From positions 1 to 57,903 of IMG/VR virus record IMGVR_UViG_3300017828_000001: 57,903 nucleotides of DNA; one strand, given 5' to 3'. This DNA comes from a virus. Its lineage: Duplodnaviria; Caudoviricetes. Every line of letters begins with the position of its first letter. Position 1 is the stretch's first letter. This document shows, piece by piece, positions 5,349 through 52,273 of the stretch. Made by a program: the position numbers and the translations under genes. The notes under the pieces are model-generated. The model made no database searches. It saw only the letters and a list, made by a program, of their open reading frames with translations, and was not told where the DNA came from.

Positions 5349-7130
5349 ATGGGGCTTTGGGACAACGCACCATCGGAGTTGAAGCGTCGATTGCCACATG
5401 ACATTCGGCTATACATGCGTAACGCATGGACACACCCGAATGACCCCACTCGTGAGTACGACTTCTACGGCGATGACGGCGATGAGTACCTCCATTATCT
5501 TGCCGACGACGATGGCCCGCTTGTTCCAGAAAATTGGGGTGACATTGTAATCCTTAACTTTGCGCGTGGCTGTCTCAAGACGACGACGGCTGTTGCTGCT
5601 GCGGATTGGTCAGTTAGTCAGTTTCCGATGATTGAGGCTGACATTACTGCACCACGCCAAGAGCAGTTCAGTGAGGTGATGGATAGATTTAAAGGTGCTA
5701 TCAAAAACAGTGGCATGGCACAACTCCGTAGCAAAAACAACATTAGCCATCAGAAGTTTGAGAGACAACTTGAAAAAGACAACGGAGAAACCGTCCACGT
5801 CGAGGCAGATGTAAAAGCCCGATCTGCGTGGGGTGATGGTGACGCACTTCGTGGCCTACACGGACATCTTGGTATCATTGACGAGTTCCAAGATGTAGAC
5901 GAGTCAATGTTTTCGACTTTTCTCGAAGCAGTTGACCAATCTGTACCTCAAGTTCCGTACTTCCCCACAATTATTGTTATTGGAACACCAAAAATGGGTA
6001 ACTCATTTTTCCACGATTTGTGGAAAATGTCAGACCAAAAAACGTGGGATGATGACGAACTTGCGTGGGTTGAGCAGTCTGATGCAGACGAGTTTATTCC
6101 AACTGAACTTGAAAAACAACGTGAGGAACTTCGCCACGAAGTTGCACAACTGAAAGACCTTCGTGAAAACGATGACGTTGATCAAGCCGCCCTCGAAGCA
6201 GAGATTGAAACCAAACAGTCTGCTATCGACAAGATAGAGGGCTACACTGTTACGGGCTGGCACATTGATCAGTATTCTTCACCACTCCACGACGACGCTA
6301 AGATTGAGTTCAAACGTCAAAAATACTCAGAAAAGAAGTTCAAAAACGAAGTGCTTGCTGAGTTCTACACGCCAGAAAACGATCTGCTGGCTGATGAACA
6401 CGTTGAAGAGGCGTTTGACCCCGAACACGGCTTTGCGAGCCGACGCACCTACGAGGACAGCACGGTAGTTGTTGGCGTAGATTGGGGTGGCGGCAGTGCT
6501 GAAGGTGCTTCAGATACAGTCATTGTCGTGGGTGAACGCATCGAGATGGATGATGATTACACCATTGTTCTCCGCGACATTGAATTTGTTGACCCCGACC
6601 TCAATAAACAGGCAGAACTTGAAAAAGTTGAGGAGAAAATCCGTGACTTTGAGGCTGACCGCATCGCCGTAGACGAGGGGTATGGTGCAAAGCAGCGTGA
6701 AGATTTACAAGAAGGAAACAACATCTGGAACACAGATGGATACGATAACGTCTGTGGAATCATTTACGGAAATATTAAAGACAAAGACGAGCCAAAGTTT
6801 TCAGACAGTGGGTTTGAAGACTCTTCGTACTGCACTGTGGCCCGCACTCACATGATTGAAAACATGGTGAGTGACTTTAAGGCTGGCCGTATTGACATTC
6901 CAGCAGCCGACCTTTCTGACGGTCGTGAAGGGACTGAACAGAAAGTTATTGACCAACTGACGGCTCCTTACACTGACCGCAAAGAAACGTCAGATGGAAA
7001 GAAAAAACTGAAGGTAATGGCTGACCGTAATGATGATGCGTTCCAAGCATTTGTCTACTTATGGATAGCCGCTGAGAAGTTCGGTTCTCGACGGACACTC
7101 AAAAAGATTGGAACACATAACAGAGGATAA
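5349..7130 (+). CDS. terL: Terminase large subunit
   Basis: Walker A-like ARGCLKTT, Walker B IIDEFQD, motif III GTP, nuclease GVDWG and DDAFQA. Confidence 0.92.
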   Translation: MGLWDNAPSELKRRLPHDIRLYMRNAWTHPNDPTREYDFYGDDGDEYLHYLADDDGPLVPENWGDIVILNFARGCLKTTTAVAAADWSVSQFPMIEADITAPRQEQFSEVMDRFKGAIKNSGMAQLRSKNNISHQKFERQLEKDNGETVHVEADVKARSAWGDGDALRGLHGHLGIIDEFQDVDESMFSTFLEAVDQSVPQVPYFPTIIVIGTPKMGNSFFHDLWKMSDQKTWDDDELAWVEQSDADEFIPTELEKQREELRHEVAQLKDLRENDDVDQAALEAEIETKQSAIDKIEGYTVTGWHIDQYSSPLHDDAKIEFKRQKYSEKKFKNEVLAEFYTPENDLLADEHVEEAFDPEHGFASRRTYEDSTVVVGVDWGGGSAEGASDTVIVVGERIEMDDDYTIVLRDIEFVDPDLNKQAELEKVEEKIRDFEADRIAVDEGYGAKQREDLQEGNNIWNTDGYDNVCGIIYGNIKDKDEPKFSDSGFEDSSYCTVARTHMIENMVSDFKAGRIDIPAADLSDGREGTEQKVIDQLTAPYTDRKETSDGKKKLKVMADRNDDAFQAFVYLWIAAEKFGSRRTLKKIGTHNRG

Positions 7131-7135
7131 TACAT

Positions 7136-8806
7136 ATGACAGACAATTTTGATGTTGACGTTTCTAATGACTCAACAACCTCGTTTGAGTTGAGTGAGGT
7201 GTCGGCAAACACATACTCTGAACTATCAGAGCAACGCACAGCGGGTGTCGGGACGCAAACTGGCGACTCTTCGGATGAGATTAATCCACGTCAGTTAATG
7301 GGCGACCCCCACATCAACGAATTGCGGTGGCTGTATCGAACGTCACTCGGAAAAACTATTGTCAATAAACCAGTAGAAGACTCATTTAAAAATGGGTACG
7401 AGATTACTGCTGATGGCGAACGTGACCCATCACAACTCTTAGATGACATTGGGTGGGAAGACCACTACAAACGTGCAAAAAAGAAAGCACGTCGTGATGG
7501 GTTTTCACTGTCGTTTTTTGTCCTTAACGATTCTTCGGAAGGAGTATGGGAAGACCCTGAAAAAGACAGTGTGATGGTTAACGGTATTAAGAAAATGGAA
7601 ACCATCACACTGGATGACATGGCACGGTACAAAACGAGCCACGGGGCTATTCCAGCGGGCGCGGAAGCTGACCCGATTGAAGACTTAGAGTACGACCAGT
7701 ATGAGATTCGGCCTACTGGTATTGTAATGGACACTGATTCTGAATCAGAAACATATAAAGAACCGCTTGGATACCTTATTGGCCCGCCAGAGTGGATTGA
7801 CAGTTCTAAAACACTTGAGCAAGTAAAGTTCCACCACGCTAATCGGTTTATTCATCACACTGTTAATGATGAAGTAGATGGAGACTTGGACGACGATTCG
7901 TTAGGTCGTTGGGAAGGAGATAGCGTCCTTGTGTCTATCTATCACCTACTTCGGGGACTAAAGAAAGGTAACTGGTCTATTATGCAGACCATTTTCCGAT
8001 ATGCGGCTAAGATGTACCATGTTGAACTTCCCAAAGACGCCGATGAAGACGATTGGGACAACGCCAATGACAACATGGTTAATCTTAATGCAAAGTCTGA
8101 ACTCATTACACCATCTGGTTATGAGATTGAGGATTTCCAGACAGATGGGCAACTTCAACCCGAAGAATACTTTGATGTGATTTTTGAGCAAGTGTGTGCC
8201 TCTGTTGAGATGACAAAAAGCGTACTGTTCGGCACACAGAGCGGTACTGTCAGCGGTTCCGAAACTGACATCAAAAACTACTTCAATAAAGTTGAGCGGA
8301 TGCGGCAGCGGGACATTGCCCCCGACATGCGGAGGTTTGCGTCAAAGGCAATTAGTCTCGTTGACTCTCGCACTGGCGACGACTACGATCTTGACTTTAC
8401 AGTTGATTGGGGGCCACTGTTCAAACTCTCTGAACTTGACAAAGCCGAACGGATTAGTCGAATCATGCAAACACTTGGCATGGCGATTAACGACTTTATC
8501 CTCACACCACAAGAGGCTCGCTCCATTCTCCAAGAAGAGTGGGCAGAAGCCGACATCAATTGGGAATCTGACTTCAGTGAAGAAGAACAGAACTTCTTAG
8601 AGACACTCAACGTGGCTCAAATGGGTGCCGAAGCAGCGTTGCCTGCTGATGAAAACAGCAAGATGCAAGGCAACCCACGTGTCGGACAAAACGGTGGCGG
8701 GCGTGAAGAAGGACAGAATGGTTCTTCACAGCAGCCCAATACAGATTCACTGACAGAACAAGAAGCAGAACTAATTGCAGAAAAAGTAATTGAGATGAAA
8801 AAATAA
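7136..8806 (+). CDS. Portal protein (DUF1073-like)
   Basis: Follows TerL; LYRT..IVNKPVED, G.SVL, LFGTQSG..SGSETDIKNY, WGPLF.LSE. Confidence 0.88.
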   Translation: MTDNFDVDVSNDSTTSFELSEVSANTYSELSEQRTAGVGTQTGDSSDEINPRQLMGDPHINELRWLYRTSLGKTIVNKPVEDSFKNGYEITADGERDPSQLLDDIGWEDHYKRAKKKARRDGFSLSFFVLNDSSEGVWEDPEKDSVMVNGIKKMETITLDDMARYKTSHGAIPAGAEADPIEDLEYDQYEIRPTGIVMDTDSESETYKEPLGYLIGPPEWIDSSKTLEQVKFHHANRFIHHTVNDEVDGDLDDDSLGRWEGDSVLVSIYHLLRGLKKGNWSIMQTIFRYAAKMYHVELPKDADEDDWDNANDNMVNLNAKSELITPSGYEIEDFQTDGQLQPEEYFDVIFEQVCASVEMTKSVLFGTQSGTVSGSETDIKNYFNKVERMRQRDIAPDMRRFASKAISLVDSRTGDDYDLDFTVDWGPLFKLSELDKAERISRIMQTLGMAINDFILTPQEARSILQEEWAEADINWESDFSEEEQNFLETLNVAQMGAEAALPADENSKMQGNPRVGQNGGGREEGQNGSSQQPNTDSLTEQEAELIAEKVIEMKK

Positions 8807-9309
8807 TGGTAGAATACGCATTTCCAGAAAAGTTTTTATTTAGTGCCATTGTTGATGGTGAAGCATATTATGTTCCCTATATGGAAAATGTCTCATCAAA
8901 TGGGAATATAAATCTCCACGTTAAAAACCCACATACTGATAAAATTATGTGGCTTGTTGGTATAACAATTTACTCTGAAGGCAATGTTGACTATTATTTA
9001 TATGATTCGTTTGATTCAATAACAAACGGTTCTGAAATAACTATTCAGAATGTGTTGATGGACAGTAGTGGGGAAGGAGAAACAGACTCAGGCCCATTTT
9101 CTGCGTATTCAAATAGTACATTTACATCTACAAACAATTTGGGTGTTCCTATTGGATTCACAATTGATAAAGGGCCTGCATCTTCAAACGTTATTGATTT
9201 TTTCCCATCAGCACTTGAACCATCAAGAGAGGTTGTAATTGAACTCGACAACCAAGATGATAGTCAAAATAAAGCACTGATTACAGTTTTGCTTGTGACA
9301 TCGTACTAA
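8806..9309 (+). CDS. Hypothetical beta-rich protein (AT-rich)
   Basis: TAATG coupling to the portal gene. Confidence 0.7.
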   Translation: MVEYAFPEKFLFSAIVDGEAYYVPYMENVSSNGNINLHVKNPHTDKIMWLVGITIYSEGNVDYYLYDSFDSITNGSEITIQNVLMDSSGEGETDSGPFSAYSNSTFTSTNNLGVPIGFTIDKGPASSNVIDFFPSALEPSREVVIELDNQDDSQNKALITVLLVTSY

Positions 9310-9320
9310 CTCTACGAAAA

Positions 9321-9333
9321 ACTACTAATAACA
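9321..9333 (+). promoter_or_regulatory. Candidate late promoter motif ACTACTAATAACA
   Basis: 28 nt before ATG 9349; identical copies at 12619, 20591, 21519. Confidence 0.65.
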
Positions 9334-9348
9334 GGAATAAAACAACTT

Positions 9349-10845
9349 ATGCCATTTGAACTATCCGAAGATACGTTAAACACAGACGAATGGGTCTTTG
9401 ATGAAAACGAAAACGGCGATGGTGTGATGACGCACAAATCGACTGGTGCAACAATTGTTTACAACTCGACAGAAAACCAGTGGGAACCGAGTGGTGGAAT
9501 CAAGACGCCTGCTCTCGAAGCAGACGAAGTGAATAACGTCGGTCACGACGACACCGATCTCCCCCAAACCCGCTCGCTGACGGTCGAAGACTGGGAGAGC
9601 GGGACGCTCGATACTGATGTGTGGGAAGGTGGCGCAGGTCAAGCAACTGTTCAAGATTCGGTGGTTGCTGATGGCTCGTACTCGTTAGCGTTGGAAAATG
9701 GTTCAATCCGTTCTGACACTGGGTTAAATTCTTATCCACAACGGGGAGACAAAATCACGTTCAAATTCTACGCTACTGATATTACTGCTATTGATTCTAA
9801 TATTAGTTTCTTTGATAATGGTAATGGCGACCGATATAGAGCATTTATAAACGATAGTAACATACAGATTTATGAGCGAGGTAATCTGTTGGGAACAACA
9901 AACTTCACAAATCAAGGTTACTCAAATACATGGCTTCGTGGCGAAATAGAAGTTGGTGAGGTAGACATTACTTTCTCTTTATATGTGGACGCTACTGATG
10001 AACTTATTGCTGACTTGACTGTCACTGATGACAGTTTCAGCTCTGGAGGTGTTGGGTTTGCTACCAATGTGTTAAGTGGTTCTCCTACAACATATTGGGA
10101 TTCAATCAGCGTTGAACGCCGTTCTCCAGAATACTTCGGTGAGACACAGAAGGGAACGACGGAGTTGGGCAACGAGGTAGTTCCGTCTGGTGGTATCAAT
10201 ACAGGCCCGCAAGAAGTCCCCGAAAACCATCCGAACTACCCACTGGTCAATCTGCCAGTTACCGACGACCTCAACGATGGGGACACGGTTGGCTACCACC
10301 TGAATGTTAACGAGGAGAACGTGGCAACGGTCGAAGCGGAAGCCGATGGTAACGGCGGAATCAAAAATCGAAAGCTGAAGGCCCCTGCTCTCGAAGCAGA
10401 CTCAGTAACGATAGGCGGCAAACTTTACGATTTTGACGGAATCATTGAAACCAGTGGAACTGATGCTGTCAACTATAGCGTTTCTGGCGATTTTAATGAA
10501 ATTGTGATTTTACCCGACCCCACTGAGGGGGCAGGGTTTGATGAATTGCAAGTCAACGGTGATTTTAACAACAATTACAATTATATTGACAACGCAGACA
10601 ATAAGACAACTGGATCGCCAGATTGGATCATACCCTTCAGCGGAGCGCGATTGCACCGCATCCAAATTACAGACGTTGGTTTTGAGGTGCAGATGTCACT
10701 AACCCCGAGCAAAGCAACCACGGGAGCAACTGTAGCAGGAGATAATGGTAATCTCGGAGGTAACGGAATCAATAGCTTAACATTTAGCGAATCAGGAGGC
10801 AACAACAGGAGTTATCGGGCGCTCGTTTATGGGAGGGAAATATAA
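9349..10845 (+). CDS. Mosaic fibre/adhesin-like virion protein with ConA-like domain
   Basis: Beta-rich; EDWESG...DDSFSSGGVGF...YWD module; repeated PALEAD linker; alternating GC- and AT-rich blocks. Confidence 0.65.
   Translation: MPFELSEDTLNTDEWVFDENENGDGVMTHKSTGATIVYNSTENQWEPSGGIKTPALEADEVNNVGHDDTDLPQTRSLTVEDWESGTLDTDVWEGGAGQATVQDSVVADGSYSLALENGSIRSDTGLNSYPQRGDKITFKFYATDITAIDSNISFFDNGNGDRYRAFINDSNIQIYERGNLLGTTNFTNQGYSNTWLRGEIEVGEVDITFSLYVDATDELIADLTVTDDSFSSGGVGFATNVLSGSPTTYWDSISVERRSPEYFGETQKGTTELGNEVVPSGGINTGPQEVPENHPNYPLVNLPVTDDLNDGDTVGYHLNVNEENVATVEAEADGNGGIKNRKLKAPALEADSVTIGGKLYDFDGIIETSGTDAVNYSVSGDFNEIVILPDPTEGAGFDELQVNGDFNNNYNYIDNADNKTTGSPDWIIPFSGARLHRIQITDVGFEVQMSLTPSKATTGATVAGDNGNLGGNGINSLTFSESGGNNRSYRALVYGREI
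9508..9525 (+). repeat. 18-bp direct repeat, copy 1 (internal dyad)
   Basis: cctgctctcgaagcagac, identical at 10384-10401. Confidence 0.9.
10384..10401 (+). repeat. 18-bp direct repeat, copy 2
   Basis: cctgctctcgaagcagac; 876 bp (292 codons) from copy 1. Confidence 0.9.
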
Positions 10846-11102
10846 TGACGAAAAAACGGTACGACTATAACGATGGGCAATTCGTTGACATTGGCAATTA
10901 TAACTCTAACAGGATTATGCCAACAGATAGCGATGATTTAGCCGAAGAATTATACACACGACTTGGAGAGCGATTTAAGATAAAATGGCCGTCTGATTCT
11001 ATGGCTGAGCCAATAGTCGATACTGATGATTTACCAAAAAATCTAACATTATCAGACATTGCTGATTCATTAAATCAAATGAAGAATGACAATATTCTTT
11101 GA
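10845..11102 (+). CDS. Hypothetical protein
   Basis: TAATG coupling; acidic. Confidence 0.65.
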   Translation: MTKKRYDYNDGQFVDIGNYNSNRIMPTDSDDLAEELYTRLGERFKIKWPSDSMAEPIVDTDDLPKNLTLSDIADSLNQMKNDNIL

Positions 11103-11155
11103 TTTTAGTAACAGTCGAAACGTGAGTACAACAAACTAACAACAGAAACAAACCA

Positions 11156-11836
11156 ATGACACAACGAACAATCAATCTGTACGACGGACTCGAAGCACTG
11201 TACTACTTCGACCCGACGTACTACGACGGGACAGCAGGCGAAATCAAAGACAAGAGCGGAAATGGTCGTCACGCAGTAGCCAGCGGAGGGCCGACTGTCG
11301 GTGTGGAAGGGCCTGACGACTTTGAGGCCACGAGTTTCGATGGAACTGATGATTCGTTTAATTTCGATGCTACGAAGCCTGTTGAACAGACGTTGTTTGC
11401 TGTCTTCAAAGCGACAGACGCAAACGCTAACACATCTAAAGATAGAGGATGGGTTATAGGCGGCCAGACTTCAAGCAGTGGAAGCGCATTGGGATTTAAT
11501 ACAACTGAAGAATTAACGTTTCAGACTTCATCAATTAATGACACAAATATAAAAGCTGCTATACCTGCTCAACAAGATAGATGGTATGCAGTAGTTGGGA
11601 GATTTGATGGTACAAATCTGAGCATTGTTAATCAAAACGGAGAGGTTGGCACAAACACACAGTCAGCAGATTATCAAAAGTTCAGCGGTGATAGGCTATA
11701 TATTGGTAAAAGAAATAGTAGTTTTGGTTGGTTTGGTGGGCAAATTGCTGCTGCTGGCAAATGGTCACGCGCCCTCTCCGATGCTGAAGCCCAACATCTC
11801 ACTAATCTTACAGCCCCACGGAGGCAACTACTATGA
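11156..11836 (+). CDS. LamG/concanavalin A-like domain protein
   Basis: GLEALYYFD..KDKSGNGRH..FDGTDD..WYAVVGRFDG..LYIG..FGGQI..WSRALS. Confidence 0.88.
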   Translation: MTQRTINLYDGLEALYYFDPTYYDGTAGEIKDKSGNGRHAVASGGPTVGVEGPDDFEATSFDGTDDSFNFDATKPVEQTLFAVFKATDANANTSKDRGWVIGGQTSSSGSALGFNTTEELTFQTSSINDTNIKAAIPAQQDRWYAVVGRFDGTNLSIVNQNGEVGTNTQSADYQKFSGDRLYIGKRNSSFGWFGGQIAAAGKWSRALSDAEAQHLTNLTAPRRQLL

Positions 11837-12288
11837 GCCACATTGACCTACGCTACACGGTTCAAGGGAGTATCGTTAGCTCGGACACAGACCTACTCGA
11901 CGCAATCGAGTCGGCCCTTCCAGCCGAAGGGGACGATATTCTCGGAAACGAGTACAATATCTCCCGAACGCAGATCGAAGACAGTCCAAACGAACGACTA
12001 TCTGCCCGCATGACGTTTACCGACGACCAGAAATTGAACCCGAAAGACGCAGCCCTCTCGCTGTTTAATCAGGTCAAATCACATGACCTCGCTGCGAAAG
12101 CCGATGGATGGGAGCTACAAGTCTACAAATCTCCCGAAGGAGCTGTCCGAGCGAGCAATGTCCGAGGGTGGTACGAAGAAGACGAATCGAGACAGCCGAC
12201 TCGGATAGATGAAGATGGTAACGGGGAATCGTATACCCCATCGATATTTGATCCGTCAAATCACGTTATTGAGTCGGCACAAAGTTAG
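11833..12288 (+). CDS. Hypothetical protein
   Basis: ATGA coupling; acidic. Confidence 0.7.
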   Translation: MSHIDLRYTVQGSIVSSDTDLLDAIESALPAEGDDILGNEYNISRTQIEDSPNERLSARMTFTDDQKLNPKDAALSLFNQVKSHDLAAKADGWELQVYKSPEGAVRASNVRGWYEEDESRQPTRIDEDGNGESYTPSIFDPSNHVIESAQS

Positions 12289-12553
12289 CAAGCGATCTAC
12301 AGTATCCACATTCATCGCCGTTTTTAGATTTTGTGCATGGTTCTTCTTCTGGTATTTCTATCATTCCGTTTTTAAAGTCTACCCATTCTTCATTCATGTG
12401 CGCTATTTTGGCAGCCCTCATTCCAAGACGACCAGCCATCGTAACAACAAATTTTGTATAGTTGCGATACTAACTATCGTCTATCTGTTCTATATCCATC
12501 ATTATTGTTTCAAACTCTTTTTCGCTCAACGCTTTTTTTGAGTGTCGGGCCAT
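12266..12553 (-). pseudogene. Tyrosine recombinase/integrase pseudogene (N-terminal fragment)
   Basis: MARHSKKALSEKEFE...DDS*YRNYTKFVVTMAGRLGMRAAKIAHMNEEWVDF...IEIP...CTKSKNGDECGYCR; in-frame TAG, truncated before the catalytic HxxR and Tyr. Confidence 0.8.
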
Positions 12554-12618
12554 ACGTTACATCTATTAGCATCACATAAATGTTTTTTGTTTTGGCTTGT
12601 TTTTTAAGCGAAAGAAAA

Positions 12619-12631
12619 ACTACTAATAACA
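12619..12631 (+). promoter_or_regulatory. Candidate late promoter motif ACTACTAATAACA
   Basis: 26 nt before ATG 12645. Confidence 0.65.
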
Positions 12632-12644
12632 CGAACAAAAATAA

Positions 12645-14921
12645 ATGGGTGACGTTATTCTCACGCACGACAGCGGTGTTAGTGCATTTGATCAAGCAAG
12701 TGGCGTTGTTAACAGCAATGACGACAGTGTGAATTTTAGTTGGGACGAGCAACACATTGTTCGAGTTGACGCACCCGCAGATTTGGAAGGTGCGTTTGAT
12801 ACTGATAAATTCTACAAAATTGCTGATGCAACAATTACTCGTCCAATCAAGCAGAAATACCGTGTCGGTGATTCAATAAAAACCTACAAAAAACCAGCAG
12901 AAGAACTACAGAAAGCTGCATGGTCGTTTGATAATTCCCCATACACCATTGACCACCCATCGACTGGCATGGTCAAAGACATTGACGACGTTGAAGCCTT
13001 TTGGAGAAACGCCCGTTACGACAACGATTCTGAACGACTGTTAGCTGACCTATACGTTCCAGTAACAAATGACAAAGCACTCAATTACATCGAAGAAAAC
13101 CAAGATGTTTCTGTTGGGTTTTACAATCGAGTGTATAGTGAGTACGATGGAAACACTGGCAACCTCACCGACGATGATGTAGACGGGTTCCAAGTTGACA
13201 TTTTTGGCAACCACGTTGCTGGTGTTGAGCGAGGCCGCTGCTCTGCTGAAAACGGTTGTGGATTAGACAGTGGTGAATATGGCAGCGTCGTAATGGAAGC
13301 CTCTCAAGACGCTCAGATTGGCTCACAATCGGTTTCTATTGACGAAGGGGGTATGGATTTATCTATTCCAGAATCGGCACAGCAAGCCGCTCAGAGCTTT
13401 TTGGATGCTGTTGAGGATGGAAAGGTTCCAGACAGTTGTGGTGGGCCAGACGGTACTGGTCGTCGTCGTGCTGGTATGTTTGCTGAAGGTGGTAAACTCT
13501 CACTTGAAACGTGGGTGACTGGTGGCACAGACGCCGTTGCGAACTGGCACCCACGTCACGAAGGTAACGAAAAATACGACGAGAGTGAGGTTGACACACC
13601 GTGGGAAGATTGTGGGTATGCGATGTTCAAAGCGTGGGGCGGTGAAGCGGCACGAAACAAAGCCGCCCGACTCAAAGAACAAGTTAAATCACAAGACGCT
13701 TCCACTATTTTTGAAGGAGAACAAAATATGAAACATGCATATACAGAAGGCGACATGGTGCGTTGGATGGCAGACGCCCGTGTTGCCCACAACCCCGAGG
13801 ATGAAGATGGGGTTATGATTGAGATTATGGATCGAAACGGTAATTCTACTGAAATGGTTACGACTGTCGATCCAGAACAGTTGCGAATGGCACAGATGAC
13901 CGATGCTGAAGACACCTACAATGAAGGCACAACCGTAACGTGGCAAGGTGGTGATGCAAAGGGCGAGATTATTGATTACAAATCTGATGGCTGTTACAGT
14001 GACCGCATTGATGGCGATATGGAAATTTGTGCTGGCGACAGTGTTGTGTATTTGATTGAAGAGGATGATGGGAAAACGGTTGCTCACAAACACGATACGC
14101 TAACAGTTCAGTCATCTGACGCCAGTGGACAACCGCCACGTGGTATCTACGAAGCAAGCGACGGAACGTGGTTTGCTGTTGCACCCGACGAGCATCCAGA
14201 TGACAACACAGACCACGTAGATGATGCAAAGTTCAACGTCGATACGTGTTCCGACGTTGGTGACGCATGGAAGCTACGTGGAAGCGGCGACATCAGTATT
14301 GAAGAAAGCACACTTGAAGACCGTATTCTTCGTGTTGCTGAAATGATGGATTGCGACATGCCTGACACTGCAATGGAGCAGATGGATGGCGAGTTAACAA
14401 CTACTAAAAATACAGAAGATAGTAACAATAATATGTCCGAATCATTTAATATTCCAGACTTGAGTGTTGACGCACTCGCAGAAAAGCACGAGGCTGTTGG
14501 TAGCCTCGTTGAACAGAACGACTCTCTTGAGTCCACCCTCAACGAGATTGAGACTGCATTTGACGAGGCTGAACACATTGCACTTGATGACGACGAGTGC
14601 GTGTGTGATGCTGTTGACGATCTCGTTGACGAACTTGATCAGAAGGCCGCTAAGGTCGAGGACTTGACTGATGAACTAAAGGAGTATCGTCAAGAAGAGA
14701 TTGACGAAAAACTTGATAATCTCACCGAACTCGGTGCAGACCGAGACGAGTGGGAAGACAAATCGCTTGATGCGATTGAAGAGGAAATTGAACGGCGTGA
14801 GGAAGTTCTTGACGCCGCTCCCGAAACGTCTGTCAAAGACGTTGATGATGGTGGCACCGAAACCAACACCGACTCCACGAGCCGAGGTAGCCGTGAGTTC
14901 GGTCGTGGATACGGAGCCTAA
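12645..14921 (+). CDS. DUF2213-type prohead protease fused to accessory domains and a C-terminal scaffold
   Basis: PYTIDHP, VSVGF, NHVAGVERGRC motifs; C-terminal acidic coiled coil; lies before the capsid genes. Confidence 0.82.
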   Translation: MGDVILTHDSGVSAFDQASGVVNSNDDSVNFSWDEQHIVRVDAPADLEGAFDTDKFYKIADATITRPIKQKYRVGDSIKTYKKPAEELQKAAWSFDNSPYTIDHPSTGMVKDIDDVEAFWRNARYDNDSERLLADLYVPVTNDKALNYIEENQDVSVGFYNRVYSEYDGNTGNLTDDDVDGFQVDIFGNHVAGVERGRCSAENGCGLDSGEYGSVVMEASQDAQIGSQSVSIDEGGMDLSIPESAQQAAQSFLDAVEDGKVPDSCGGPDGTGRRRAGMFAEGGKLSLETWVTGGTDAVANWHPRHEGNEKYDESEVDTPWEDCGYAMFKAWGGEAARNKAARLKEQVKSQDASTIFEGEQNMKHAYTEGDMVRWMADARVAHNPEDEDGVMIEIMDRNGNSTEMVTTVDPEQLRMAQMTDAEDTYNEGTTVTWQGGDAKGEIIDYKSDGCYSDRIDGDMEICAGDSVVYLIEEDDGKTVAHKHDTLTVQSSDASGQPPRGIYEASDGTWFAVAPDEHPDDNTDHVDDAKFNVDTCSDVGDAWKLRGSGDISIEESTLEDRILRVAEMMDCDMPDTAMEQMDGELTTTKNTEDSNNNMSESFNIPDLSVDALAEKHEAVGSLVEQNDSLESTLNEIETAFDEAEHIALDDDECVCDAVDDLVDELDQKAAKVEDLTDELKEYRQEEIDEKLDNLTELGADRDEWEDKSLDAIEEEIERREEVLDAAPETSVKDVDDGGTETNTDSTSRGSREFGRGYGA
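14433..14921 (+). CDS. Putative nested in-frame scaffolding protein
   Basis: In-frame ATG (MSESFNIPDL) preceded by ACTACTAAAAATAC at 14400-14413 and an A-rich leader. Confidence 0.5.
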   Translation: MSESFNIPDLSVDALAEKHEAVGSLVEQNDSLESTLNEIETAFDEAEHIALDDDECVCDAVDDLVDELDQKAAKVEDLTDELKEYRQEEIDEKLDNLTELGADRDEWEDKSLDAIEEEIERREEVLDAAPETSVKDVDDGGTETNTDSTSRGSREFGRGYGA

Positions 14922-15546: not shown

Positions 15547-16629
15547 ATGGCTACTACTTCATTCCATCACGAAGACGACTTTACCGAGATGGTTGCCCCC
15601 GACGAAGATGTGATGCTTGAGCGTGAGGGGCGCGACCGTCGTGGACTACGACGAGAATTGGCACCGCTGACCGAAATGGAACGCGGAACTCGAAAGATTG
15701 AGGAAGGCGACGGTATCTACGTTGACCCCAACAGCGACATGCCGACTGGCACCACTGGTGTCGGTGAGGTGCTTGGTAATGTTGACATTGTTCGCTACAC
15801 TGGCGACGAAGTTAACATTCCACGCATGACCCACGGCATGACTGTCGATGCTGAAGACTTGGAGCTTGGTCAGGCATCTGAAAAGGTCAGTCGTGGTCAA
15901 GACGCCGTTATGGAGATGTTTGACATTCAGGCTGACCTTCAATTCCTTCTCGGAATCACTGACGAGGAAGGCAACGAGGTTCAGCCCGCTGTCTTCCACT
16001 GGCTTGATGATAACATGCCGAGTGAGAATATCATCAACGCTGGTGACTACACCTCAAAGTATTCCATTGACAACGGACAGCCGTCTAACATTATTCAGCA
16101 AGTTGCCTACGGAAAAACCGAAGGTATCTACGCTGACGACGGATGGGACATGGCTGCGATGACGCACTCGGTTGACGCCCTCTGGAACACCATTGACGAT
16201 AACAGCGGCGTTTCGCTCAAGTCTCAATGGGCTGACCTCGGTGACGACACTCGTGGCGTTGGATCGAGTGTTGTTAACGACATGTTCAAACTGCCACGCT
16301 TCACTGGCCTTCGGACGGCACCAGACGCCAATGACACGCTTCAGTTTGATCTCCACGAAGAGGCACTCCCGACCGCCTCTAACGGGGCTGACGATGACGT
16401 GATGTACCTCATCCCCGACCACGGTGGGGACTTCTTCAGCGTCTACGAGCATCCCGAACCCACGCTCATCGAGGAACCCATCCGTAAGAACGGTGGGGCA
16501 CTCGAATACGAGTTCTACTGGCGGGCTGGACAGGCCTTTGGGTTCGGCAGCCACCAGACTGATGACGGTGCTGGCGGGTCGGTCGCTCACGACGCCATCA
16601 AGATTGAGAACGTCTCTGCACTCTTCTAA
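15547..16629 (+). CDS. Major capsid protein (HK97-type, by position)
   Basis: 360 aa; synteny; C-ending codon bias suggesting high expression. Confidence 0.8.
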   Translation: MATTSFHHEDDFTEMVAPDEDVMLEREGRDRRGLRRELAPLTEMERGTRKIEEGDGIYVDPNSDMPTGTTGVGEVLGNVDIVRYTGDEVNIPRMTHGMTVDAEDLELGQASEKVSRGQDAVMEMFDIQADLQFLLGITDEEGNEVQPAVFHWLDDNMPSENIINAGDYTSKYSIDNGQPSNIIQQVAYGKTEGIYADDGWDMAAMTHSVDALWNTIDDNSGVSLKSQWADLGDDTRGVGSSVVNDMFKLPRFTGLRTAPDANDTLQFDLHEEALPTASNGADDDVMYLIPDHGGDFFSVYEHPEPTLIEEPIRKNGGALEYEFYWRAGQAFGFGSHQTDDGAGGSVAHDAIKIENVSALF

Positions 16630-18802: not shown

Positions 18803-20101
18803 ATGGCAGAAACATACGGTACAACGACAATTCCGAGCGATAGTGTCACCGTTCGTAGTGGTGGAACAGTCTCCATCGGGGCCGCGTTTGAAACGACGCT
18901 TGGCCTTGTCGGTGGGATGGACACCGCTAACGGTGACGCTTCCGAAGGAGATGTTATTACAGTAGAATCGACTTCTGATGCAGAACAGCAGTTTGGTGAG
19001 GACTCTGAACTTGCCAAAAACGTTGCAGCAGCCTATGCAAACGGTGCTGGAACGATTTACGCTGTTGGTGTGTCAGAAACACAGACAACTGAGAGCTTTG
19101 GTAGTTCCTCAAGTGGAACGTTAAGTGAGTCGCCAGTCTTTGACCCGACTGTGCATCCAGACCACGACATTACCGCAACTGACACAGTTGATGCAGCAAG
19201 CGTTACTGTTAATATTGTCTATGGGACACCGTCTGCCCCCACTGAGGCAAACACGATTAACCTTAATCCAGTGACGGGAGAGTGGGAAGCAGACGAGAGT
19301 TCCGACTACGATATTGACTATACGTATGGTGACTACGACAGTGCAATTACTGATGTTGTAAAGAAAGTTCCACGAATTGTTACTGTCCTCACCGAAAACG
19401 AGACAGTTGCGAACTCGTTGCTCACTGAACTCAACACCTATGACTCTGACTTTGAGTTTATGCATGGTGTTGTTGGGGCCGAACCCGAAGTTGATGCGGC
19501 CACCTATAGTGACAATCTTGATGACCGTCGGCTGTCCATTGTCGCCCCGAGTCGCGGGTGGCTTGATTCGGCTGAAACCGATCAAGTCCGTACAATAGGT
19601 GCTGTCGGTGGACGGGCGTCTGGAAAGCCGCTTGGTGACTCAATGACCTACGAACCACTGCAAGGCATTGTGTCGCTTAACACACAGTACACAAACAGCG
19701 AACTTGGCACACTGATTGACAGCCAAGTGATGCCGCTCCGTCAGAGTGGTGGAATTGATATTGTTAAAGATATGACCACCTCAACTGACGTGCGGTTTGA
19801 ACGACTGTACGCCAGTGAGATTATTGACGAAGCAACTGAAATTTCACACGAAATTTCACAGCAGTTCATTGGAAATGCCAACACCGAAGACAATCGACTA
19901 TTGCTTCGGGAATCGCATACCACATCGTACAATGAATTGCTCGAAGACCAACTCCTTGAAGATTTCCTCGTCAACGTGTCAAAAGGTGCCAACGACTTTG
20001 AGGTTGACATTGACATTGGCCTTGATGTCATTGGTGTCATTGATACAGTCGATGTCACAATTACTGTTGGTGATGTGGTTCAGAACGGAGGTGCTGCCTA
20101 A
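18803..20101 (+). CDS. Tail sheath protein
   Basis: DAEQQFGEDSEL..AYANGA, FIGNANT C-terminal sheath pattern. Confidence 0.88.
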   Translation: MAETYGTTTIPSDSVTVRSGGTVSIGAAFETTLGLVGGMDTANGDASEGDVITVESTSDAEQQFGEDSELAKNVAAAYANGAGTIYAVGVSETQTTESFGSSSSGTLSESPVFDPTVHPDHDITATDTVDAASVTVNIVYGTPSAPTEANTINLNPVTGEWEADESSDYDIDYTYGDYDSAITDVVKKVPRIVTVLTENETVANSLLTELNTYDSDFEFMHGVVGAEPEVDAATYSDNLDDRRLSIVAPSRGWLDSAETDQVRTIGAVGGRASGKPLGDSMTYEPLQGIVSLNTQYTNSELGTLIDSQVMPLRQSGGIDIVKDMTTSTDVRFERLYASEIIDEATEISHEISQQFIGNANTEDNRLLLRESHTTSYNELLEDQLLEDFLVNVSKGANDFEVDIDIGLDVIGVIDTVDVTITVGDVVQNGGAA

Positions 20102-20544: not shown

Positions 20545-20590
20545 GTAATCTAAAAAAATTTATCATTCTATATTGTCTTGCGAAACAAAT

Positions 20591-20603
20591 ACTACTAATA
20601 ACA
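20591..20603 (+). promoter_or_regulatory. Candidate late promoter motif ACTACTAATAACA
   Basis: 20 nt before ATG 20611. Confidence 0.65.
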
Positions 20604-21438: not shown

Positions 21439-21518
21439 TGTGTTGGTTACTACTGTAGTAGGAAGAAACTCGTGAGTTCAACTGAACTCACGTAGCTTGT
21501 GTTCTCGTGAGAACAAAA

Positions 21519-21531
21519 ACTACTAATAACA
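21519..21531 (+). promoter_or_regulatory. Candidate late promoter motif ACTACTAATAACA
   Basis: 25 nt before ATG 21544. Confidence 0.65.
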
Positions 21532-26354: not shown

Positions 26355-26689
26355 CAACAGACTTACTCATTGACGAAGAACTCGATACGGTTATAGACAC
26401 TACTAACGATTTAGGAACAGTAAGCGGGATTCAACAACTTGAACAATCAGTTGCGATTGACGTGTTAGATGTGACACGTCAGTTTGTTGGTTCTTCGTTG
26501 ACTGGAGAACAAGTAGGACTGTTAGAAGAACGTGTTCTTCGGTCATTAGAAGATGACGAACAAGTTGGTGAAGTGCTTGACGTTGTTGTATCACAATACG
26601 ATAGAGCAACACAAACCGTTACGATGGAAATAATTGTGTTAGAAGATGAAAACTTTTCGATTGAACTACAAAATTTAGGTGATACGTAA
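26351..26689 (+). CDS. gp25-like baseplate wedge/sheath initiator
   Basis: NDLGTVSGIQQLEQSV; synteny. Confidence 0.7.
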   Translation: MTTDLLIDEELDTVIDTTNDLGTVSGIQQLEQSVAIDVLDVTRQFVGSSLTGEQVGLLEERVLRSLEDDEQVGEVLDVVVSQYDRATQTVTMEIIVLEDENFSIELQNLGDT

Positions 26690-28521
26690 TGCCAATTGTT
26701 GATGGAAACTATGTCCAACGAACAGCAGACGAGATTCAAACAGCACTCGAACAAGAGTTAATCAACGAGTTCGGTGCTGACATTGATCTTACAGAATCAT
26801 CAACATTTAGCACACTCGTTGAAGTGTTGGCAAGCGTTGCTTCAAACAACCAAGAAGAAACGTTGAAAGATGTCTATGAGTCTGCCTTTCTTGACACGGC
26901 TACTGGTGTTGATTTGGAACGTGTTGTCTCAATTATTGGCCTCCAACGTCGATCAGCTATTCACGCAACTGGTGTTCAGCGGTTTATTGCGCCGTCGCCT
27001 GTAACACAAGACTACACAATTCAAAAAGGTACAACAGTCCAAACTGGTAGCGATAATCCGATTGAGTTTGAAACAACAGAAGTTACTTTTTTTGAATTAG
27101 TTGATGACTTTAGTAGCGGCAACGTTGGTAACTATTCTGGCGACGTTGGTTCAGCAACAGTTGTTACAGACAACAACGCTATTCGAGGCAACAACGTTCT
27201 TCAACTTGACGCAACTGATGGGGCTGTAATTTATAACGATAGTATAACGTTTGATCAAGGTGTTACACTTCACTGCCACGTTCGCCCACAATCAAATACT
27301 ATTCCAGCAGTTGTGTTCGGACTTGATAGCAACAATGCAAATAATTACTATCAAATTGCCGTAGACGAGGCGGCAAATGAGGTTCGGTTAGAAGTTGTTG
27401 AAAGTGGGTCAATTACGACAACTGTTGACACACTTTCTGCAACTATTAATGCTGACTCTTTCCACGAAATTGAATTTGATTGGAATATTACTAACAATAT
27501 TGGAATCACAGTATATGACCCATCTGACAGTGAGTTAGGGACATTAGGTGGTGTTGATTCAACATTTACATCTGGTTCTCCCGCCTTCAAAAGCGGTGAT
27601 GCAAACGGAACAAAAGAGTTTGATTTCTACACAACATCTGAAACATCAGCAAACATTCGAGCAAAAGAAGGCGGTGTAGAAGGCAATGTTGGCCCCAACA
27701 GCATTACTGTTCTTCCGTCACCACCAAACGGCGTTGACGAATCTAAAAACCTTTACTCAACTGGTGACACAAGTTACGAAGACACAAATCAAAAAGTTTT
27801 TAGTGTAGGAACTAATAGAGAGCGAGATGACGAACTCCGTAACCGTGCAGAAGAGGCCGTTACTGGCGGCGGTGCTGCCACACACGACGCCATTGTTTCA
27901 GAACTAATTAACAACGTAGAAAACGTTACTTCTGTTCAACTTTATGAGAATAATACTGGCATAGACAACACTGACAGTGGTGGGCTTCCACCGTACTCGT
28001 TTGAAGCAGTTGTGTTTGGCGGCTCTGATGCAGAAATTGCAGAATCTATCTTTGATAAAAAAGCAGTAACGTCCCGCGATTACGGTGGTGCAAACGGTAC
28101 AAAGGTTACTGAAACAGTAACAGCAGAAACGAACGGGCAAACTCGACAAATTCAGTTTTCCCGACCAGCAAAAGTTAGTGTTGATATAACACTTGATATT
28201 GTTGTTAATGATACATATGTTGGAGATAATCAACTTCGAGATAACATTACACAATACATTGGTGGTGTGTTAAATAACGGTTCTGAAGTCATTGGATTAG
28301 GCGTTTCTGATAACGTTCGTATTGATCGTATTTCTGACATTGTTGTTGGCGAAGACACTGGTGTTGTTGGGTTAGATCAGTCTGTTGATGGGACACCAAT
28401 TGAAACAACACCAAGTAAGTCTACTGTGAATGGGCTTGAGGTTGTTGATATTGGTTCAAACGAAGTTGCACAGATAGACGCCTCTGATGGGTCAATAACA
28501 ATTAACAAACGGACACTATAA
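26689..28521 (+). CDS. Baseplate J-like wedge protein with inserted ConA-like domain
   Basis: FLDTATGVDLE, GGVEGNVGPNSI, GTNRERDDELRNR, LPPYSFE. Confidence 0.9.
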   Translation: MPIVDGNYVQRTADEIQTALEQELINEFGADIDLTESSTFSTLVEVLASVASNNQEETLKDVYESAFLDTATGVDLERVVSIIGLQRRSAIHATGVQRFIAPSPVTQDYTIQKGTTVQTGSDNPIEFETTEVTFFELVDDFSSGNVGNYSGDVGSATVVTDNNAIRGNNVLQLDATDGAVIYNDSITFDQGVTLHCHVRPQSNTIPAVVFGLDSNNANNYYQIAVDEAANEVRLEVVESGSITTTVDTLSATINADSFHEIEFDWNITNNIGITVYDPSDSELGTLGGVDSTFTSGSPAFKSGDANGTKEFDFYTTSETSANIRAKEGGVEGNVGPNSITVLPSPPNGVDESKNLYSTGDTSYEDTNQKVFSVGTNRERDDELRNRAEEAVTGGGAATHDAIVSELINNVENVTSVQLYENNTGIDNTDSGGLPPYSFEAVVFGGSDAEIAESIFDKKAVTSRDYGGANGTKVTETVTAETNGQTRQIQFSRPAKVSVDITLDIVVNDTYVGDNQLRDNITQYIGGVLNNGSEVIGLGVSDNVRIDRISDIVVGEDTGVVGLDQSVDGTPIETTPSKSTVNGLEVVDIGSNEVAQIDASDGSITINKRTL

Positions 28522-29369: not shown

Positions 29370-29881
29370 AACTGAAATCTCTCACAACGGTTGTGAGGCG
29401 CATAGAGAGACATTTGTCACCAGCCGATGATTGGGCCTCAAAACTCAGAAAAATTGCTTACAAACGCGCACAGAGCGTTCTGAGTCCACTCATAGGCATC
29501 CAGTTTACACGAGAAAAAAGCAGAGCAGATTACATCTGTACTGTTGAAACAAATGTTGATGCTGTTGAAACAGCACTCTGGAACGCTGGCTACCAACGCA
29601 ACATGCTTTCAACGTGGAAGTATAGAAACGTTGGTGGAAAACGGCAAGATATTGTAAGTGCGTGGGTGTACGATCCCCCAACAACAGAAACACAACATGA
29701 CGTGTACTTATTTGACAATGCCGACACAGTAGATGTGTATGGACATAAGGAACCATCAATCCGTAATCCAGTTAAGCATCTTGACCTTTCAACTGGTATT
29801 AACGGCGACCCAGATAACAGAGCAAAAGCGGCGTTAGCTGAAGCTGGCATTAAAACCACTACTACGTACACGAAACAATGA
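29366..29881 (+). CDS. Hypothetical protein (unusually basic for this genome)
   Basis: ATGA coupling at both ends. Confidence 0.7.
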   Translation: MKLKSLTTVVRRIERHLSPADDWASKLRKIAYKRAQSVLSPLIGIQFTREKSRADYICTVETNVDAVETALWNAGYQRNMLSTWKYRNVGGKRQDIVSAWVYDPPTTETQHDVYLFDNADTVDVYGHKEPSIRNPVKHLDLSTGINGDPDNRAKAALAEAGIKTTTTYTKQ

Positions 29882-30666
29882 CATGGAATATTACAGATAG
29901 ATTTCCTGATTGGGGCGAAACTGGTGAATCTCCCCCAAACGGGTTTTTCTACGAAGGTGGAGATCAAGTTAATGAAAAACATCTTGATTATCTTTGGAAC
30001 TCTATTAAGGGTCTTGAAGAAGATGTTCAATCAGCCTTAAATGATATTGATTCCGATGGTGATGGAAAAGTAGATAATGCTGACCAGTTAGATGGCAATA
30101 ACGCAGCGTCATTTGCTGATAACCCACATGGAAATGGACAACACAGCGAAACGTATCTTGATGAGTCTACATATGACTCTGATGGTAATGGTAAAGTAGA
30201 CGCTGCTGAAAGTGCTGATAGTGCTACTGACGCAACAAACGTCACCTCAACTTATAAAGGAAACGACATTGACAGTGATGGGGACGGAAAAGTAGATGCA
30301 GCGGATAGTGCTGACACTGCATCTGGAATAACTGGTGTTCGCCTTCAAGACCTTGAAGATGTGGAGTTGGCTGTTTTCGGAACTACAACAGTTAGTGCAG
30401 GAAGTACAGTAACCGTAGAGAATAGTTATAGCAAAAACAACTCTTCTGCGACATTACTCACGATGGCAACCCCTGCGGAAACTTCGGGGCCAGACGCAAG
30501 GTCACTTGTTGGTGCGACAAATCCTGACAGAGATAGTTTTGTTGAGGGCGATATTGGTATTTACACAAGTGAAACTGGAAACTCTACATACGAACTTGCT
30601 GTTGTGAATCTTAGTTCAAGCAGCAGAGAAGTTGAGTATCAAATTTACGAGGTGCAACGACTATGA
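29878..30666 (+). CDS. Tail fibre protein with DxDGxGKVD repeats
   Basis: Fibre-type N-terminus (WGETGE.PP); three D-SDG-GKVD repeats; NADQLDG motif. Confidence 0.75.
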   Translation: MTWNITDRFPDWGETGESPPNGFFYEGGDQVNEKHLDYLWNSIKGLEEDVQSALNDIDSDGDGKVDNADQLDGNNAASFADNPHGNGQHSETYLDESTYDSDGNGKVDAAESADSATDATNVTSTYKGNDIDSDGDGKVDAADSADTASGITGVRLQDLEDVELAVFGTTTVSAGSTVTVENSYSKNNSSATLLTMATPAETSGPDARSLVGATNPDRDSFVEGDIGIYTSETGNSTYELAVVNLSSSSREVEYQIYEVQRL

Positions 30667-31076
30667 CACGAGTTATTTACGACGCACAAAGCGGTGACGT
30701 TATCGCAACGGGAGACGCTGTAGCCACAGAGGGTGAGATGTCTGCTGAGATTGACGGGGATAATATCACAAAACCGATCAGTGGGACAAAGGTGGACGAT
30801 GTAAATAACCCTACAAAAACTGTATCAGACCTACAGAAAATAAAGTCCCAAAAGAAATCTCAAATAAAAAACGAAGCCTATAGTCTGTTAGAACCGTATG
30901 ACTGGTACGTAATCCGCAAGCAGGAGGAAGGAACTGCTATCCCAACTGAAGTCTCTCAGTACCGAAGTGATGTTCGCACAACGGAAGACAACGTAACTGC
31001 TGCTGTTGAAGCAGCAACATCTGCATCTGAAGTGCGGTCAATTGAACCTAACTGGCCTGATGAACCAGACATATGA
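30663..31076 (+). CDS. Tail fibre assembly chaperone
   Basis: LLEPYDWYVIR..IPTEV.QYR..VR...WPDEP. Confidence 0.75.
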   Translation: MTRVIYDAQSGDVIATGDAVATEGEMSAEIDGDNITKPISGTKVDDVNNPTKTVSDLQKIKSQKKSQIKNEAYSLLEPYDWYVIRKQEEGTAIPTEVSQYRSDVRTTEDNVTAAVEAATSASEVRSIEPNWPDEPDI

Positions 31077-37345: not shown

Positions 37346-37369
37346 GACTGCTAATAGAAGACAGCAGCA

Positions 37370-37382
37370 TAAAAGAGTTACG
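37370..37382 (-). promoter_or_regulatory. Representative host-type early promoter (BRE CGTAAC + T-run TATA)
   Basis: cgtaactctttta about 25 nt before the polB ATG; close variants near 33326, 37564, 38040, 47345, 48649, 51425, 51875, 52175 and on + at 56896. Confidence 0.75.
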
Positions 37383-37538
37383 TTAGTAATGTTGCATTTG
37401 AAACGCGACTGAAATAAAAACGATCCCAATATACACACCAAATAACGTGATGCCCCATTTTGGTTCTGTTGCCCAACCAACAACAGAACTGATTATTGCC
37501 GCACCAATCCACTCAACCACGTCAGCTATTGAAATCAT
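37383..37538 (-). CDS. Small two-helix membrane protein (51 aa)
   Basis: MISIADVVEWIGAAIISSVVGW...; own promoter at 37564-37576. Confidence 0.65.
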   Translation of the reverse strand: MISIADVVEWIGAAIISSVVGWATEPKWGITLFGVYIGIVFISVAFQMQHY

Positions 37539-41916: not shown

Positions 41917-42621
41917 CTATCGGTACTCTTCGGGCCACTTATATTCAAAGTCTGGTAACGGTTCACCCATGTAGTCCCATAGTTTTGGTGAGTCTTCTAC
42001 TGTCCAATAAACAATACCATATCCAGAGTAATTATTTTCTCGTATGTCGTAGTTTGATGGTTCTGGCAAACCAAGGTCAGTAAAATATTTTGAAATTTTT
42101 TCTGTATTTTCTATTTCATTAGAAATTCCTATTGATATTCTTCTACCATCTTTTTCATAACACCCATCTCCAACATACCAGTGTTTCAACACTGTTGGAG
42201 TTAATTCTATATCTTCGGGCCACACTTTTTTACCGCTCTCATACCATTCACGGAACTGATTAAATTTCGGATGTGACCTTGTTCTCCAAATAAATATGTC
42301 AGAGTAATTTTCCTCTTTTGCGTTCGGTCTAAAACCGTTTTTCTTATTCATTTTAACACTTTCAGCAGCAGTTTGTTCTAATGAAACACCAGTAGATAAA
42401 CAACCAAAAACATTATCTAAATATTCAAGATAGTTTGGACTAATCATTTCCACCATGAGACGTTTATTCTTACCATTTTTATTAATCCAACCATCACCCA
42501 TAAGAACGCCAGTTGTTATTTCAATCTGTTTTTGCGTGAGTTTTGGTCTATGTGAAGGTGAACCATTCCAGTGCATACCAATGCGCTTATACTTGTCACC
42601 ACATTCAGGACACTTGACCAT
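41917..42621 (-). mobile_element. Free-standing LAGLIDADG-type homing endonuclease with N-terminal zinc finger
   Basis: CPECG..HW, ITTGVLMGDG, LKHWYVGDG; AT-rich, basic; start moved to MVKCPECG. Confidence 0.85.
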
Positions 42622-42652
42622 GTAATAATTAACAGATAGAAATATAAAAAAG

Positions 42653-44916: not shown

Positions 44917-44950
44917 ACTATTATTAATGTATGAAAAGGTATAAAAGCTT

Positions 44951-45052
44951 TTATCCGCAAAGCGAGAAGCCGCATCCAGCAACGCATCGGACACAGCCTT
45001 CCATTTGACATAGCTCTGCACCACAGTCAGGACATTGGTTTAGGTGTGACAT
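44951..45052 (-). CDS. 33-aa Cys-rich zinc-ribbon microprotein
   Basis: MSHLNQCPDCGAELCQMEGCVRCVAGCGFSLCG; ACTACTAATAG motif upstream. Confidence 0.75.
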   Translation of the reverse strand: MSHLNQCPDCGAELCQMEGCVRCVAGCGFSLCG

Positions 45053-52152: not shown

Positions 52153-52273
52153 ACCGTTATTAGTAGTTTCTAAGTAAAAAGAGTTATGGAACAGCTATAC
52201 AACGAGAGTAAAGCCCCACCACCGCACAACCCTATGTTGTTATAGTATATACTAACGTAAAAAGGTTCGGTTC

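Follow-up and report, generated by a model that had tools for sequence, protein, structure and literature searches.

Receptor-binding proteins of tailed phages have a conserved N-terminal anchor and exchangeable distal domains, as in the exchange of T-even adhesins at conserved motifs, and in tailed viruses the distal domains are usually exchanged by general recombination at domain boundaries. Shufflons and integrons have multiple sites delimiting several alternative cassettes, together with an active dedicated recombinase, and the core site of a tyrosine recombinase consists of inverted binding arms around a crossover region of 6-8 bp. In the haloviruses phiCh1, phiH and ChaoS9, a recombinase of the Int1 family inverts tail-fibre genes, and int1 of phiCh1 lies between two opposed, repeat-containing fibre genes in an invertible segment, as described in PMC6210493, PMC6471424 and PMC4284463 and in the GenBank annotation. 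The stretch analysed here (the window), 57,903 bp long and 45.4% GC, is an entire IMG/VR virus record, in which a lectin-like gene of 498 amino acids (aa; product P0001) carried two identical 18-mers and lay near a broken recombinase gene. An earlier note on this DNA had proposed a shufflon- or integron-like exchange of adhesin modules at these 18-mers, now frozen.

The two 18-mers are probably copies of a hinge that was duplicated in the course of ordinary domain shuffling, and not recombinase targets. The 18-mer CCTGCTCTCGAAGCAGAC was found twice as a direct repeat, at a spacing of 876 nt (292 codons) and in frame, each copy encoding PALEAD (Table 1), just as had been noted. The repeat exceeded 18 nt, with 25 of 29 nt identical or, with a 15-nt indel, 33 of 38 aligned nt, and the peptides were GGIK-T-PALEAD-EV and GGIK-NRKLKA-PALEAD-SV. 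With about 87% identity between the copies over 38 nt, an uninterrupted match of 18 nt requires no special constraint. The probability of identical DNA for the same hexapeptide under independent codon choice at the codon usage of the virus was 1.25e-3; the copies must therefore be related by descent as DNA or be kept alike by a constraint on the DNA.

Both copies stood exactly at the module boundaries of a mosaic adhesin-like gene, which upheld the view that they mark module junctions. A phmmer search of P0001 against 1.84e9 representative proteins gave 256 matches at E<=1e-3, and each of the best 150 of these covered essentially one part of the protein, namely aa 1-62/75, about 60-345 or about 346-498. 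P0001 itself gave nothing on Pfam; the Laminin_G_3 match of this region belongs to the neighbouring 226-aa gene. The fibre-like label of P0001 is one that we infer from its architecture. The N-terminal module, which together with the hinge makes up aa 1-59, was common to 10 proteins including that of the window and ended in the motif GG[IV][KS]T[PS]xxxx ("GGIKTP-ALEA"). The residues after GG[IV][KS]T[PS] were ALEA in 5/10 and otherwise VVDS, AVKA, SLEA, TLEA, or ALEA after TS, giving the hinge PALEA in five proteins and PVVDS, PAVKA, PSLEA, PTLEA or SALEA in the others. Beyond this module the 10 proteins fell into seven mutually unrelated tail groups (all-vs-all blastp, E<=1e-3). P0035, for example, was 87% identical to P0001 over aa 1-62 and unrelated from there on. 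One N-terminal module was thus joined to unrelated C-terminal domains across genomes, as in modular receptor-binding proteins.

The segment between the repeats had been called ConA-like, and structure prediction agreed, the module being lectin-like by fold and without a Pfam match. Its AlphaFold2 (AF2) model had a ConA/legume-lectin/LamG-type jelly roll, with a predicted local distance difference test (pLDDT) score mostly of 77-95 over aa 101-260. Foldseek against the PDB returned lectin- or LamG-like matches at E 7e-8 to 1e-6, with TM-scores normalised to the target of at most 0.60 for legume lectin-like chains. In this family the blocks GHDxVxVPQVRxLTVEDWESGTLDTDVW and RREPE...GNEVVPSG.IQTGPQEVP...EAEADGNGG flanked a variable core. 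The 14 homologues of the lectin module (alignment A1) were conserved from GHD... to ...EAEADGNGG and divergent after it, their N- and C-termini differed, and PALEAD was absent at both borders of the module in these 14 aligned sequences. Four homologues (P0002, P0005, P0007 and P0012) had a conserved short tail, ...ADSMTADPESASEDG[FY][IV]EVDI.GTTYQVPMYQA, which gives the impression of a foldon-type trimerisation tag look-alike.

The C-terminal beta-sandwich module had weak galectin-like Foldseek matches (E 5e-3). It was met mostly in proteins of about 150-310 aa, and those inspected carried a small N-domain of their own and a linker before it (...GALDADSVSTGSLVIGG or ...TLEADSLTIG). P0149 (251 aa) matched aa 1-72 of P0001 and the C-terminal module, without the lectin part. 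The second hinge aligned to ALDAD, TLEAD or AADAD of the short-form relatives. Alignment of the N-module family (A2) with the short forms (A3) by hhalign gave a probability of 93.5% (E 2.2e-7) and placed the PALEAD copies in register; the comparison of A2 with A1 was disregarded as a self-match, since P0001 is in A1. In-frame removal of the 876 bp, as had been suggested, would give a product that looks like a natural short form; a look-up of sequencing runs for window positions 9300-12650 listed none. In the AF2 models each PALEAD lay in a linker between domains that was modelled with low confidence, the linker of copy 1 spanning aa 55-58. The whole-protein model, made from the mixed alignment A4, had the C-terminal module misaligned (pLDDT 30-46 for aa 350-447), and this module was modelled separately from A3.

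A search with P0001 and the A1, A2 and A3 profiles across viral, metagenome and genome contigs found a single locus, L006, in which orthologues of the 498-, 226- and 151-aa genes (43, 43 and 50% identity) lay directly upstream of the head protease gene. In the 10.3-kb part of L006 examined (67% complete) there was no recombinase, no 18-mer and no repeat flanking the lectin module. The region and P0001 had no blastn or tblastn match among isolate phages and just two distant lectin-domain matches among plasmids.

GC content at third codon positions (GC3) varied along the 498-aa gene as a mosaic of at least four segments, with values of 0.6-0.7 in the conserved blocks and 0.3 in the variable lectin core, against a genome mean of 0.43. 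The strongest shifts were inside the lectin module, with a fall near aa 105 (0.59 to 0.31, p = 0.0015) and a rise near aa 255 (0.31 to 0.60, p = 1.5e-5). At the first 18-mer GC3 went from 0.47 to 0.59 (Fisher p = 0.31), and the fit of composition to the two repeats was loose overall. The 226-aa lectin-like gene was also a GC3 mosaic, and the two lectin-like genes had conserved blocks at 0.6-0.7 and variable cores at 0.2-0.35. The 151-aa gene ranged from 0.4 to 0.63, mostly 0.57-0.63 in its first two thirds.

These modules suggest a route by which the gene could have arisen. An ancestral short form of about 205-250 aa would have consisted of anchor, hinge and C-terminal module, with the PALEAD hinge closing the anchor domain and opening the distal one. 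The present gene would have gained a lectin segment of 292 codons between two copies of the hinge, which would make it a mosaic of three independently circulating modules. We infer that the lectin module was either inserted in frame at the hinge or brought in by fusion of two paralogous fibre genes (anchor-hinge-lectin and anchor-hinge-C-module), neighbouring or co-infecting. Such a fusion could have crossed over where both genes carry the microhomology GGxGGAATCAA ("GGIK"); the lectin family ends in ...GNGG and the anchor in ...SGGIK. Either route would duplicate the hinge and leave the repeat as the scar of a general recombination event, homologous or mediated by microhomology, at the border between domains. 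The GC3 mosaic fits repeated general recombination with donors of differing GC content. The lectin-like proteins of this region probably bind the host surface.

Several observations weigh against a duplicated hinge. Of the composition shifts that had been reported at both repeats, the one at the second site was present, if modest (GC3 0.60 to 0.39, Fisher p = 0.021). The identical codons call for a process at the DNA level, which is credited here to common descent of the copies and may instead reflect selection as a DNA site. The similarity between the ends of the N-terminal and lectin modules, a prediction of the tandem-gene fusion variant, was marginal (p = 0.019 if GGIK is included and 0.35 if it is left out) and was not relied on for that reason. 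The DNA of relatives of the N- or C-terminal module was not found in viral, metagenome or genome contigs. The phiCh1 repeat peptide ETAMDAVSTS is loosely like A-L-E/D-A-D, in our own reading and without statistical support. The pseudogene near the 498-aa gene is also a member of the only recombinase family of archaeal viruses for which action on repeats within fibre genes is known.

That pseudogene bore out the description of a dead tyrosine recombinase in the same group of genes. It read for 27 codons, had an in-frame TAG at codon 28 and continued for 67 codons. Read through the stop, positions 12547-12284 (-) aligned to residues 5-92 of the 224-aa phiCh1 Int1 (44% identity, E 1e-19). The C-terminal residues (about 130), which carry the second catalytic box and the tyrosine, were absent. 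In tblastn against isolate phages, the 67 residues matched 18 records, all haloviruses, led by the HCTV-5 integrase (52% over 62 aa) and phiCh1 Int1 (55% over 56 aa, residues 37-92), with CGphi46, ChaoS9 int1 and phiH int1 next. A second Int1-like stretch was not found anywhere in the window, and ten further large open reading frames (ORFs) contained no recombinase. Homology to Int1 was present and an intact Int1-type tyrosine recombinase, as in the phiCh1-type module, was not. This decayed gene comes from the Int1/HCTV-5 family and may be a trace of an earlier time when the slot was associated with a recombinase; it has no demonstrable link to the 18-mers.

Other explanations were weighed, and it is unlikely that the 18-mers were core sites at which an Int1-type tyrosine recombinase inserted or excised the lectin module in frame, the system being frozen when the recombinase decayed. 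An in-frame segment between perfect 18-bp direct repeats, a predicted excision product like the natural short forms and a DNA identity above codon-choice expectation would all be explained, and the remnant is related at 55% identity to phiCh1 Int1, which recombines fibre-gene repeats according to PMC6210493. The sites themselves argue against this. The palindrome described earlier (arms CTGC/GCAG around the 7-nt core TCTCGAA) is there, but as a trivial feature: its perfect arms are 4 nt long, and 326 such 4+7+4 dyads occurred in the window, seven of them in the 498-aa gene. Outward of the arms 6/8 (copy 1) and 5/8 (copy 2) dyad positions matched, so that the extended symmetry around the central 7 nt expected of a tyrosine-recombinase core site was not found at either copy. 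Hairpins at the 18-mers did not exceed shuffles in stability (z -1.7 and -1.0). N-module relatives that still change tails at the hinge differ in its peptide and consequently in its DNA. The suggested search for related genomes with the 18-mer and other modules did not bear fruit: IMG/VR gave four matches, all in unrelated frames and contexts and mostly on high-GC contigs (about two expected, by estimate), and the 10.3 kb of L006 have the trio of genes without recombinase or flanking repeat. The genes of the window block showed no relation to those beside int in phiCh1, HCTV-5 and CGphi46. The window offers a single segment between its two sites and lacks an active recombinase, repeat clusters and a partner gene, and the shufflon- or integron-like exchange proposed earlier is not supported.

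The same relic could instead have served the whole block. Relative to Haloarcula tailed virus 2 (HATV-2), the window had an extra 3.3 kb (9316-12613) with the 498-aa gene, an 85-aa ORF, the 226- and 151-aa genes and the recombinase remnant, and it is improbable that this block is a (former) integrating cassette with an Int1-type integrase at its right end and the flanking 27-nt repeats as attL/attR. Those direct repeats (25/27 identical, spacing 3298) bracket exactly the region missing in HATV-2, the int start codon is 60 nt from the right copy, and HCTV-5 has the same convergent pair of lectin-like 'sialidase' and small integrase beside a head-morphogenesis gene. However, the 18-nt core of the 27-mer, (G/C)AAA(A/T)ACTACTAATAACA (also written AAACTACTAATAACA), had five copies in the window at <=3 mismatches, where 0.06 would be expected. 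In four copies the core ended 7-15 nt before the ATG of a listed ORF (9349, 12645, 20611 and 21544), and the minus-strand copy had an ATG 2 nt further on that was not tied to a listed ORF. As three copies (1-3 mismatches) lie away from the block, two of them just upstream of the ORF starts 20611 and 21544, the core resembles a motif for regulation or gene starts in this virus and is probably a signal of the promoter or gene-start type, not an att site. It was not found in the first 14.8 kb of HATV-2 nor in the 10.3 kb of L006, and the 37 IMG/VR loci with the core 17-mer were all unrelated to the window (tblastn with 12 window proteins). A broader version, in which small Int1/HCTV-5-type recombinases are general movers of adhesin DNA, the block was recombinase-borne and entered at the gene-start motif, and the PALEAD 18-mers were secondary in-frame sites, is quite improbable; if true, it would be an archaeal-virus counterpart of shufflons and integrons acting inside coding sequence. 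Still more doubtful is an independent origin of the two PALEAD codings, as a structurally favoured hinge peptide with coincidentally identical codons. Related hinge motifs (ALDAD, TLEAD, ALDVS) do recur across families and other exact repeats of at least 18 nt are present in the window, but the codon-choice probability given above speaks against coincidence, identity extends past the hexapeptide (GGxGGAATCAA and AAG upstream, AGT downstream), and the only other long within-protein repeated peptide of the window, in a 262-aa ORF, differs in DNA.

By gene content and order, the virus is a haloarchaeal myovirus collinear with HATV-2 (Soleiviridae, Eilatmyovirus), its closest isolate. Amino acid identities were 50% for TerL, 42.5% for portal, 44% for protease and 47% for sheath, all collinear, and the putative major capsid ORF (15547-16629) was 41% identical and collinear, with no family match of its own. 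By these five core proteins, at 41-50% identity to HATV-2, the virus may be Soleiviridae-like. The 167-aa ORF sits where HATV-2 has gp10, with no detectable similarity to gp10, and the 151-aa ORF gave no match in family searches (Pfam, PHROG). The coordinates of the features are shown in Table 1.

Table 1 Positions of the repeats, modules, genes and motif copies in the 57,903-bp window
Feature	Position	Strand	Remarks
TerL	5349-7130		
Portal gene, left border of variable slot	7136..8806	+	Pfam Phage_portal_3 E 5e-25; phrog_146 E 1e-41
167-aa ORF, no assigned function	8806..9309	+	GC3 0.20-0.30
Promoter-like (gene-start) 27-mer, left copy	9316..9342	+	
498-aa three-module lectin-like fibre/adhesin-type gene (P0001)	9349..10845	+	ORF, translation
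N-terminal anchor module, aa 1-53	9349..9507	+	Four beta-strands; pLDDT 83-92, aa 11-50
18-mer copy 1, PALEAD aa 54-59	9508..9525	+	Conserved end (hinge) of N-module
Central module, aa 60-345	9526..10383	+	ConA-like jelly roll, then conserved block ...EAEADGNGGIK(NRKLKA)
18-mer copy 2, PALEAD aa 346-351	10384..10401	+	Hinge just before first C-module strand
C-terminal beta-sandwich module, aa 352-498	10402..10842	+	AF2 predicted TM-score (pTM) 0.73
85-aa ORF, no assigned function	10845..11102	+	
226-aa LamG/ConA-like protein	11156..11836	+	Pfam Laminin_G_3 E 2.9e-9
151-aa ORF, conserved partner of both lectin-like genes	11833..12288	+	L006 orthologue 50%
Tyrosine recombinase pseudogene, Int1/HCTV-5 type	12263..12553	-	N-terminal ~95 codons only
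Promoter-like (gene-start) 27-mer, right copy	12614..12640	+	Upstream of head protease gene
Prohead protease/scaffold gene, right border of slot	12645..14921	+	Pfam DUF2213 E 2e-11; phrog_530/12864
18-nt core copies	9316-9333, 12614-12631, 20586-20603, 21514-21531	+	
18-nt core copy	52155-52172	-	
Tail sheath	18803-20101		Head-closure and neck proteins also found in window
Baseplate J/wedge	26689-28521		Tape-measure-like protein also found in window
Family-B DNA polymerase gene	34607-37483		Opposite arm of genome from structural genes

Other features of the window were also recorded. A 262-aa ORF (29878-30666, +) behind the baseplate genes is a candidate tail fibre; its 12-aa internal repeat NDIDSDGDGKVD stood at aa 55 and 129, the copies differing in DNA, and the next ORF (30663-31076) had a tail-fibre-assembly PHROG match (E 1e-6). 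Two LAGLIDADG_2 homing-endonuclease ORFs, both on the minus strand (41917-42681, Pfam E 1.5e-16; 44197-45024, E 1.4e-13), lay in low-GC stretches (1-kb GC 0.35-0.37), a few kb either side of ORFs neighbouring the family-B DNA polymerase gene. The right-end region of small ORFs held an exact direct repeat of 41 nt (55078-55118 and 55637-55677, 559 nt apart), which may be regulatory or of origin type. Four more exact direct repeats of 18-19 nt were present (3306-3324/21402-21420, 32935/38237, 40861/49562 and 752/778), with about 0.02 such repeats expected by chance in the whole window, by estimate. The copy at 21402 lies about 110 nt upstream of the promoter-like motif at 21514.

The 498-aa gene offers a clear archaeal-virus example of a putative receptor-binding protein assembled from circulating modules, with a visible junction scar and an anchor that is joined to seven different distal domains across proteins. 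Its hinge motif GGIKTP-ALEA could be of use in predicting host range or designing domain swaps in haloviruses. The Int1-family relic extends the association of recombinase and adhesin genes beyond phiCh1-like viruses. The lectin-like accessory genes in head-gene slots of the window and L006 raise the question of whether their products decorate the head or the tail. Current views are not overturned; a site-specific mechanism would be the interesting part, yet it is unsupported here.

Compared with phiCh1, phiH and ChaoS9, the window has a pseudogene homologous to Int1 that runs towards the 3' end of adhesin-like genes, an arrangement that int1 shows on one of its sides in phiCh1. In homology and evolution, the parallel with phiCh1 drawn earlier is justified. 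The recombinase of the window is truncated and carries a stop, and the repeats are two direct copies 876 bp apart. Arrays of about 30-bp repeats, which Tandem Repeats Finder detects in phiCh1, were not found in window positions 8800-12700, and no tandem or inverted repeat clusters like those of phiCh1 surround the 498-aa gene. There was no opposed paralogous fibre gene, the block genes other than the pseudogene being all on the plus strand and giving no second copy in tblastn against the window. The protein similarity of P0001 to phiCh1 gp36 was not significant, nor did the 85-aa ORF significantly resemble the small ORF next after the fibre gene of phiCh1 (E 0.055).

Among other haloviruses, HCTV-5 has a carbohydrate-binding-type 'sialidase' convergent with a small integrase (genes 112/113, L008 4890-7588) in a head-gene neighbourhood, the pair adjoining a Mu gpF-like head gene. 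Its integrase is intact (233 aa), unlike the remnant here, its cargo proteins are unrelated to those of the window, and the pair has no known function. HATV-2 has portal, gp10 and protease contiguous, with this one small gene in the place of the block and no homologue of P0001, and carries three extra genes between TerL and portal (L010 4325-6311), one annotated 'BppU N-terminal domain'. From their gene order, variable slots with accessory genes recur inside the head-gene module of haloviruses and are lectin-like in the window and L006; the 'BppU N-terminal domain' and 'sialidase' annotations hint in the same direction.

Unlike the tailed-phage model of domain swapping, the window comes from an archaeal virus, has its gene between portal and prohead protease instead of behind baseplate genes and carries the hinge motif twice in a single gene, and any attachment of the product to head or tail is putative. 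The likeness to that model lies in an N-terminal module that gives way sharply, at a short conserved motif, to seven unrelated tails, and in a gene that is mosaic in composition and has lectin-like distal domains. The 498-aa gene is probably an ordinary mosaic receptor-binding gene beside a notable relic of the Int1 family.

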